64,000 nt of DNA from a virus (IMGVR_UViG_3300046663_000412:1-64000); one strand, 5' to 3'. Positions 54,453 through 54,774 are shown, counted from the first letter of the stretch. Notes: generated from the sequence alone by a model not told the origin. A program made the numbers and translations.

Positions 54453-54535
54453 TACTCGGTAGTTTAAATGCAAAACACCAGTGGATTGATATTGAAGCTG
54501 GAGTTGCAAGGTTCGTAACCCTTGCCCGGGTGCCA
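54453..54535 (+). ncRNA. tRNA-like RNA A (expanded anticodon loop)
   Basis: Acceptor TACTCGG/CCGGGTG, D-arm GTTT/AAAC, CCAGT/GCTGG stem with a 14-nt loop, T-arm GCAAGG-TTCGTAAC-CCTTGC, CCA end. Confidence 0.65.
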
Positions 54536-54542
54536 ATTTTAT

Positions 54543-54610
54543 GTCGTGGTCGTCTAAGTGTAGGATTCCGGGGCACCGGAGATGCTGGGGAAGGCCAGCC
54601 CACGACCCCA
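54543..54610 (+). ncRNA. tRNA-like RNA B (no anticodon)
   Basis: Perfect 7-bp acceptor GTCGTGG/CCACGAC, TCCGG-GGCA-CCGGA arm, GCTGG-GGAAGG-CCAGC arm, C-CCA end. Confidence 0.7.
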
Positions 54611-54613
54611 ATT

Positions 54614-54691
54614 TGCGGGGTGGAGCAGTCTGGCTAGCTCGTCACGCTCATAACGTGAAGGTCGATGGTTCAAATCCATCCCCCGCAACCA
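54614..54691 (+). tRNA. tRNA with CAT anticodon (fMet-like body)
   Basis: TGCGGGG/CCCCGCA acceptor, CTCATAA loop, GGTTCAAATCC T-arm, encoded CCA. Confidence 0.92.
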
Positions 54692-54699
54692 ATTTTGAC

Positions 54700-54774
54700 A
54701 GCCGGGTAGCTTAAAGTAAAGCGGCGTGAATACAAAGCGCGAGATGTCGGGGTAGCGTCCGACCCCGGCCACCA
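54700..54774 (+). ncRNA. tRNA-like RNA D (TAC loop, no TTC)
   Basis: (A)GCCGGG/CCCGGC(C) acceptor, GCTT/AAGC D-arm, weak anticodon arm with AATACAA loop, GTCGG-GGTAGCGT-CCGAC arm, A-CCA end. Confidence 0.65.

Follow-up and report, generated by a model that had tools for sequence, protein, structure and literature searches.

A phage array of CCA-ended cloverleaves with three putative non-decoding tRNA look-alikes and its counterparts in related phages

Our comparison of a phage RNA array with its counterparts in related phages indicates that the array represents a real, conserved family of non-decoding tRNA look-alikes, for which the nearest published case appears to be RNAC/RNAD of phage T4. 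The array comprises four cloverleaf units, A, B, C and D, separated by spacers of 7, 3 and 8 nt (Table 1). Unit C is a canonical tRNA gene; the comparisons described below support reading A, B and D as working RNA genes that are kept for their tRNA shape, and not as dead genes. The window, that is, the whole 64,000-nt stretch of DNA analysed here (IMGVR_UViG_3300046663_000412:1-64000), covers the first 64 kb of an IMG/VR virus record of 73,277 bp, rated complete by CheckV. The sequencing runs listed as containing the phage DNA are soil and rhizosphere metagenomes, with no RNA run among them; four soil/rhizosphere DNA runs yielded no variants of the array, and the differences seen there were traced to unrelated tRNA-Met genes.

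Table 1. Features of the array, of the RNA island around it, and of capped cloverleaves in unrelated phage arrays (coordinates without a contig name are those of the window)
Feature	Coordinates	Strand	Remarks
40-aa single-pass membrane protein gene	54080..54202	+	GTG start overlaps preceding stop; left anchor of the RNA island
Hairpin	54205..54226	+	Right after the stop codon of the 40-aa gene; same place in 4/4 lineages; stem sequences differ; no U-run
Multi-stem non-coding RNA heading the array	54227..54452	+	About 225–240 nt; no encoded CCA
Unit A	54453..54535	+	83-nt cloverleaf; fold, relaxed ARAGORN
Unit B	54543..54610	+	68-nt cloverleaf; fold, L123 homologue
Unit C	54614..54691	+	Canonical tRNA-Met(CAU), encoded CCA; ARAGORN, Rfam 64.3 bits
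Unit D	54700..54774	+	75-nt mitochondrion-like cloverleaf, encoded CCA; Rfam 26.1 bits, L119 homologue
167-aa secreted protein gene	54819..55322	+	Within the RNA island in this phage only
E element, conserved structured RNA	55323..55472	+	Counterparts L119 7451-7573, L123 1734-1916, L131 3724-3935
3–5-nt-capped cloverleaf	L073 47-122		ARAGORN-missed; unrelated array
3–5-nt-capped cloverleaf	L106 8795-8870	reverse	ARAGORN-missed; unrelated array
3–5-nt-capped cloverleaf	L101 8501-8578		ARAGORN-missed; unrelated array
3–5-nt-capped cloverleaf	L018 2047-2125	reverse	ARAGORN-missed; unrelated array

Departures of the units from canonical tRNA

A preliminary description of this DNA, made from the sequence alone, had reported four CCA-ended elements 3–8 nt apart, each followed by ATTT, and had stated that only the third is canonical and that tRNA scanners would probably miss the others. 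Our analysis agrees on each point: the positions and spacers match, a CCA end followed by ATTT is present at all four units, and ARAGORN and Rfam at its gathering threshold report unit C as the sole detection. The CCAATTT motif occurs 12 times in the window, against 11.5 expected by chance, and four of its six plus-strand copies fall within 245 nt at the array, spaced 75–83 nt. The Rfam tRNA model (RF00005) in E-value mode scores unit D under its 29-bit threshold and gives no match to units A and B at E up to 10, while relaxed ARAGORN labels A 'tRNA-???' at ps80 and detects D in mitochondrial mode only.

Minimum-free-energy folding yields a cloverleaf for all four units, a shape adopted by 1.9–3.1% of dinucleotide shuffles per unit; the folding-energy z-scores of single units are modest to weak (−0.9 for A, −1.5 for B and −1.7 for D). 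As a correction to the preliminary description, unit D has a mismatch (A1/C71) in its acceptor stem, leaving 6 of 7 pairs, and its anticodon stem consists of 4 pairs with a G/A mismatch. Units A, B and D all fail a canonical test of the anticodon arm (5-bp stem, 7-nt loop, U33, purine 37). In a corresponding test of the elbow (G18G19 and U54-U55-C56), B and D are without both elements, and A has UUCG in the T loop and no GG in the D loop.

The altered loops listed in the preliminary description are all present. In unit A, the 'anticodon'-stem loop is 14 nt long and contains a tandem AUUGA duplication, and the T arm has a 6-bp stem and an 8-nt loop that includes the UUCG; the acceptor stem runs with 7 pairs straight into the CCA, leaving no discriminator, or, in an alternative reading, has 6 pairs and G73. 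The 14-nt loop was considered as an antisense sequence and rejected: allowing up to 3 mismatches, it gave 8 matches where 4.5 were expected, and none of them is convincing. A's loop (54483–54496) could also pair over about 9 bp with a hairpin loop of the E element (55433–55446), a complementarity within the chance range. Unit B has a perfect 7-bp acceptor stem followed by discriminator C and CCA, a D arm of the Gln/Glu type, a T loop without UUC, and an 'anticodon' arm of 5 bp; this arm is closed by a 4-nt GGCA cap, so B has no anticodon. Beyond the clade, the top match of a covariance model of B is a phage tRNA-Gln. Unit D has discriminator A before its CCA, has no G18G19 and no UUC in the T loop, and, in the register that it shares with its L119 homologue, carries A at position 33, in line with the earlier statement that it lacks U33.

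Unit C matches tRNA-Met genes annotated in cultured phages at 78–90% identity (blastn, E <= 1e-5). Its anticodon stem is without the three G-C pairs, and C therefore reads as an elongator Met or Ile2 tRNA and not as initiator-like.

From these features, unit B is unable to decode, and A and D almost certainly are unable to do so either. The competing view is that D, and perhaps A, are divergent yet decoding tRNAs, acting as an unusual isoacceptor, a frameshift or quadruplet reader, or a suppressor. D lies close to the Rfam threshold, another register gives it U33 and the anticodon ACA, and loop-altered phage tRNAs that are still able to decode are known. Yet B has no anticodon at all, A's loop carries its tandem duplication while an L131 counterpart has a 7-nt loop with C33, and, in the shared register, A33 is found in both D and L119 7376–7450, whose 'anticodons' differ. 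The conserved elbow nucleotides are, moreover, missing from the T and D loops, and no open frame in the region needed recoding. We consider decoding by these units very unlikely.

Conservation of the cloverleaves among related phages

Searches with flanking proteins identified three further lineages, in which the flanking protein is 44% (L123), 42% (L119) and 39% (L131, with L132) identical, and a near-identical contig, L124. A matching RNA island lies in the same place in L119, L123 and L131, between the 40-aa gene with its hairpin and an fcl-like gene; the 40-aa gene is called on L124, L123, L131 and L119, and its proteins are 54–68% identical over the four lineages. Nearly all island units in the relatives end in CCA followed by ATTT. 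A 7-pair helix closes at the CCA, or one base before it, in 13 of the 18 CCA-delimited units of the four lineages, and 11 of those 13 helices coincide with the fold's own acceptor stem, a few nucleotides past the previous ATTT.

ARAGORN finds a tRNA in the L119 array and none in the L123 and L131 arrays, where Rfam matches are all sub-threshold or truncated. The L123 array contains no scanner-detectable tRNA, and in L131 the only Rfam match is a truncated one of 30.4 bits, to the anticodon/T half of an insertion-bearing Met(CAU) unit. A CAU anticodon heptamer in L123 1779–1850 was rejected as a candidate, as its hairpin is unsupported by folding (z = −0.3). Searches of IMG/VR with single flanking proteins, DNA polymerase, profile A1 and two exact array DNA motifs did not reveal more relatives. 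Profile A1 found nothing in the genome collection, an exhaustive profile search gained no lineage beyond P0007, look-ups of the 40-aa proteins gave no new contigs, and a metagenome pattern scan returned chance matches only (L125–L130).

The preliminary description had argued that intact stems with replaced loops reflect selection on shape and not decay, and had proposed a search for compensatory changes in related phages. We find such changes for both B and D. Specifically, the covariance model of B matches L123 1663–1730 with 41.1 bits (E about 1e-9), and between the two all 21 of 21 pairs are standard (100% of the 42 pair cells) and 7 pairs, 5 of them in the 7-pair acceptor stem, have changed on both sides; these counts come from two sequences, aligned by a model built on the tested structure and so biased toward pairing. 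Slid controls for B give 38–49% paired and 0–2 both-side changes. The covariance model of D matches L119 7376–7450 with 36.9 bits (E about 1e-8), with the Met units next. Across the five sequences of the D group, made up of D, the Met units and the L119 counterpart, pairing extends to 96% of cells and 13 pairs have changed on both sides, figures that carry the same bias of model-fitted alignments and, with four lineages in all, the same thin statistics; slid controls are about 40% paired, and 0 of 500 shuffles reach the observed value. The homologues of B and D thus keep their pairs in place of random stem decay, and the argument for selection on shape is borne out.

In the comparison of B with L123, the D arm and the capped arm are near-identical, with the cap reading GGCA in one and GUAA in the other, and the acceptor and T stems are rewritten. 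This pattern points to the 'bottom half' as the specific part of B, with a top half that would need only to be a helix.

The same data bear on the view that A, B and D are decaying tRNA pseudogenes from a once larger cluster. The units do look tRNA-derived, with B's D arm resembling that of tRNA-Gln/Glu and D's a generic tRNA, and their loops are degenerate. Against decay, the stems stay paired through both-side changes even though the flanking protein is only 39–44% identical, the CCA and ATTT spacer are kept at nearly all units, and the central part of B is near-invariant. Decay, already largely refuted by these observations, is scarcely tenable.

For unit A, the picture among relatives is more varied. 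Model R3, built for A, finds the neighbouring paralogue B (29.3 bits) and L131 3373–3446 (25.3 bits); the latter has a D arm and stem like A's, with the 7-nt loop and C33 noted above. Homology between the inner arms of A and those of L119 7211–7293 is not clear, which suggests that some units turn over quickly.

The surrounding RNA island and its genes

The genes flanking the array are on the plus strand throughout, in the order 160-aa protein, 40-aa membrane protein, array, 167-aa secreted protein and fcl-like epimerase. A consensus scan found no sigma-70-like promoter and no terminator-like site inside the array. Upstream, a TCAACA-N15-GCGACT sequence at 52381–52407 is a variant of the phage's recurrent TTGACA-N15-GCGACT motif. 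Together, the array free of internal promoter-like or terminator-like sites and the upstream motif variant make it likely that the array is co-transcribed with late genes. In the same scan, the hairpin that follows the 40-aa gene gave no terminator-like site, and it is likely to be a 3′ stabiliser of the upstream mRNA. The array was also considered as attachment-site remnants; this was rejected, as the units are complete CCA-ended cloverleaves and the phage recombinase is of the serine type and 4 kb off.

This setting is compatible with cloverleaves that serve as punctuation or stability elements, namely, RNase P and 3′-trimming signals that split a late polycistronic transcript and leave the small RNAs as by-products. 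The island sits amid co-oriented genes with no internal promoter-like or terminator-like site, a conserved hairpin ends the upstream gene, a protein gene lies within the island in this phage, and RNase P is known to process tRNA-like structures in both mRNAs and phage transcripts. For that purpose, however, one or two units would suffice, whereas the lineages keep 4–6 or more different ones; sequence conservation reaches across distant lineages in the D arm and capped arm of B, which a cutting signal would not need; and units with structured insertions of 55–81 nt are retained. A role confined to punctuation is therefore unlikely.

The preliminary description delimited the feature to 54453–54774. 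The array is confirmed within these limits, and the feature is larger, extending to the RNA upstream of the array and to the E element beyond the 167-aa gene. The segment 54084–54452 folds with z = −3.6 (0 of 100 shuffles fold as well), and the heading RNA has no Rfam match. The 5′ part of the E element aligns across the four lineages, with variation between them in the sequence of the first helix. In L119 and L131 the E element comes directly after a CCA-ATTT junction and ends in a hairpin and ACCA; in the window, it follows the 167-aa gene and has no CCA end. A unit ending in a hairpin and ACCA is found in three lineages.

The E counterparts lie within the arrays of L119, L123 and L131, and the 167-aa gene thus sits inside the island in the present phage only. 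It is absent between array and fcl in L123 and L131, and a 70%-identical homologue lies at L119 3530–4033, about 3 kb upstream of the L119 array. The gene looks like a mobile accessory gene inside the island.

Some units of the relatives carry large insertions of 55–81 nt in their tRNA frames, at L131 3578–3723 (z = −4.6) and at L119 7662–7787 (126 nt). In the L131 unit, a Met(CAU) cloverleaf that ARAGORN does not call, the anticodon arm is intact, the T loop is non-canonical and the D loop holds about 81 nt of inserted hairpins. Such insertions point to a 'scaffold' built on a tRNA frame no less than to a pure mimic.

The extended island could also be read as one large ornate RNA of >600 nt (54205–54774 and 55323–55472), with the cloverleaves as its domains. 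The strong structure of the upstream segment, the conservation of the island as a block and the 9-bp complementarity between A's loop and loop 55433–55446 would fit such an RNA. Yet every unit is self-closed by its own terminal helix and CCA, the order and content of units vary by lineage, the island is interrupted here by the protein gene, searches at E up to 10 return no GOLLD, ROOL or other Rfam family, and the loop complementarity is within chance (8 matches against 4.5 expected). We judge a single large RNA quite improbable.

Six-frame searches of the 73-kb genome for PTH2, Pth and RF-1 (PF01981, PF01195 and PF00472; E up to 0.1–1) found nothing, and no gene for a CCA-adding enzyme was found in this genome. 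In L119, about 5 kb upstream of the island, positions 1339–1746 encode a 135-aa RF-1-domain protein with a GGQ motif, which we take to be of the ArfB-like peptidyl-tRNA hydrolase type. Two other genes in the window were noted. A 324-aa ORF inside the replication module (34989–35963, minus strand) has an RNA_ligase (PF09414) domain and no match among solved structures. An ORF at 15366–16424 (minus strand) has an N-terminal GcrA-like domain and a weak metallophosphoesterase match (hmmscan Metallophos_2, 20.4 bits); six-frame genome searches with PF12850 and PF00583 were empty, despite weak hmmscan matches to both families. GcrA is typical of Alphaproteobacteria and their phages, which gives a hint at the host of this phage.

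Known systems, candidate functions and significance

The tRNA frame is known to lend RNase P and 3′ processing, a CCA end and stability to other RNAs, as in engineered tRNA scaffolds, mascRNA and the tRNA-miRNA units of gammaherpesviruses. By analogy, the array likewise presents non-decoding RNA in a tRNA frame with the anticodon arm replaced; the scaffolds differ in being artificial, and the mascRNA and gammaherpesvirus modules in being eukaryotic or viral. To our knowledge, no natural use of the tRNA frame as a scaffold by a bacterial phage has been described. Phage tRNAs of the T5 type have altered anticodon arms that evade tRNA-targeting defences. The present units resemble them as variant phage tRNAs in arrays whose anticodon region departs from that of the host, and the arms-race logic fits. 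The T5-type tRNAs differ in remaining able to decode, whereas an anticodon is absent from B and a usable anticodon loop from A and D.

The T4 RNAs RNAC and RNAD ('species 1 and 2') are small stable RNAs encoded in the tRNA region of T4; they are expressed late, and no function is known for them (PMC3014915; PMC9697503). As far as descriptions can be compared, A, B and D are like them in being non-decoding small RNA genes beside a tRNA-Met in a phage cluster. The present units differ in being compact, CCA-encoding cloverleaves of 68–83 nt, with several types per phage and comparative support for the cloverleaf. A search of the phage collection with 54150–54850 matched tRNA-Met genes only.

YrlA and other bacterial Y RNAs (RF02553) are non-coding, contain a tRNA-like module and are in some cases phage-encoded (PMC4201824). 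A test for YrlA failed (19.5 bits against a threshold of 69, with a match that straddles parts of the adjacent units C and D), and the array units, unlike YrlA, have a free CCA acceptor end and no Ro-binding stem. Rfam searches for GOLLD and ROOL gave no match in 53900–55000 (E up to 10) or in the whole window (gathering threshold), and ARAGORN reported no tmRNA.

The preliminary description had put forward, as possible roles, decoys for tRNA-targeting defence toxins, sensors of uncharged tRNA, aminoacyl or CCA carriers and processing signals. The reading that we favour, with moderate confidence, takes A, B and D as small RNAs of tRNA origin that no longer decode, are processed by the host and act as decoys or scaffolds. 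The island would be transcribed along with the flanking late genes; host RNase P would cleave at the 5′ end of every acceptor helix, an endonuclease would cleave in the A/U-rich spacer after each CCA, and exonucleases would trim to the CCA, freeing stable RNAs of 83, 68, 78 and 75 nt. The 'top half', consisting of acceptor and T arm with the CCA, would allow the RNAs to be matured, to be stable and to reach proteins that recognise tRNA by its shape, and the replaced anticodon region would keep the RNAs off the ribosome and away from anticodon-specific enzymes. Two modes of action could follow. As decoys or sponges, the RNAs would capture factors that bind the body or 3′ end of tRNA; as scaffolds, they would present the replaced arm.

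The steps of this proposal differ in strength. The existence of the genes, with their conservation and covariation, is what the comparisons show. Processing and stability are what the anatomy of the units and established pathways suggest, and the decoy or scaffold action is purely hypothetical. Most units have U at −1, G at +1 and A/U-rich leaders, features that fit the established preferences of bacterial RNase P and RNase E. Efficient recognition by RNase P or by the CCA enzyme is not assured, since A and the L123 B-type unit are without a discriminator and the elbows are non-canonical (no G18G19).

Similar units appear in unrelated phage arrays. A survey of IMG/VR for three CCAATTT motifs at tRNA spacing returned >117 loci. 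In the arrays with at least one ARAGORN tRNA there are at least 14 further CCA-ended units that have 7-pair acceptor helices and are missed by ARAGORN, several of them with 3–5-nt caps in place of the anticodon loop (Table 1). Three ARAGORN-missed units (L069 12913–12992, L072 1003–1078 and, on the reverse strand, L018 1839–1915) combine a normal-looking UUU anticodon loop with D and T arms that are odd; these are candidates for non-canonical tRNA-Lys genes.

A wider proposal is that phages use the top half of tRNA as an expression chassis, that tRNA-maturation enzymes of the host excise the RNAs, and that the replaced arms, be they capped hairpins, enlarged loops or 55–81-nt inserts, make each RNA a specific decoy or binder, for instance against toxins that attack the 3′ end or body of tRNA, in a system that is widespread and invisible to scanners. 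We offer this tentatively, as a possibility of rather low probability.

The usual explanations for phage tRNA genes are codon supply and escape from tRNA-cleaving defences. The L123 array without a detectable tRNA and the L131 array with a truncated match only argue that the value of these arrays is not codon supply alone. Our comparisons suggest that this phage clade keeps non-decoding, tRNA-shaped RNAs under purifying and compensatory selection, and the ARAGORN-missed units in unrelated arrays imply that standard annotation may be systematically blind to such units. Decoy or scaffold action by A, B and D, if true, would define a new class of RNA for phage counter-defence or host takeover, and would offer a natural precedent for the engineered tRNA scaffold.
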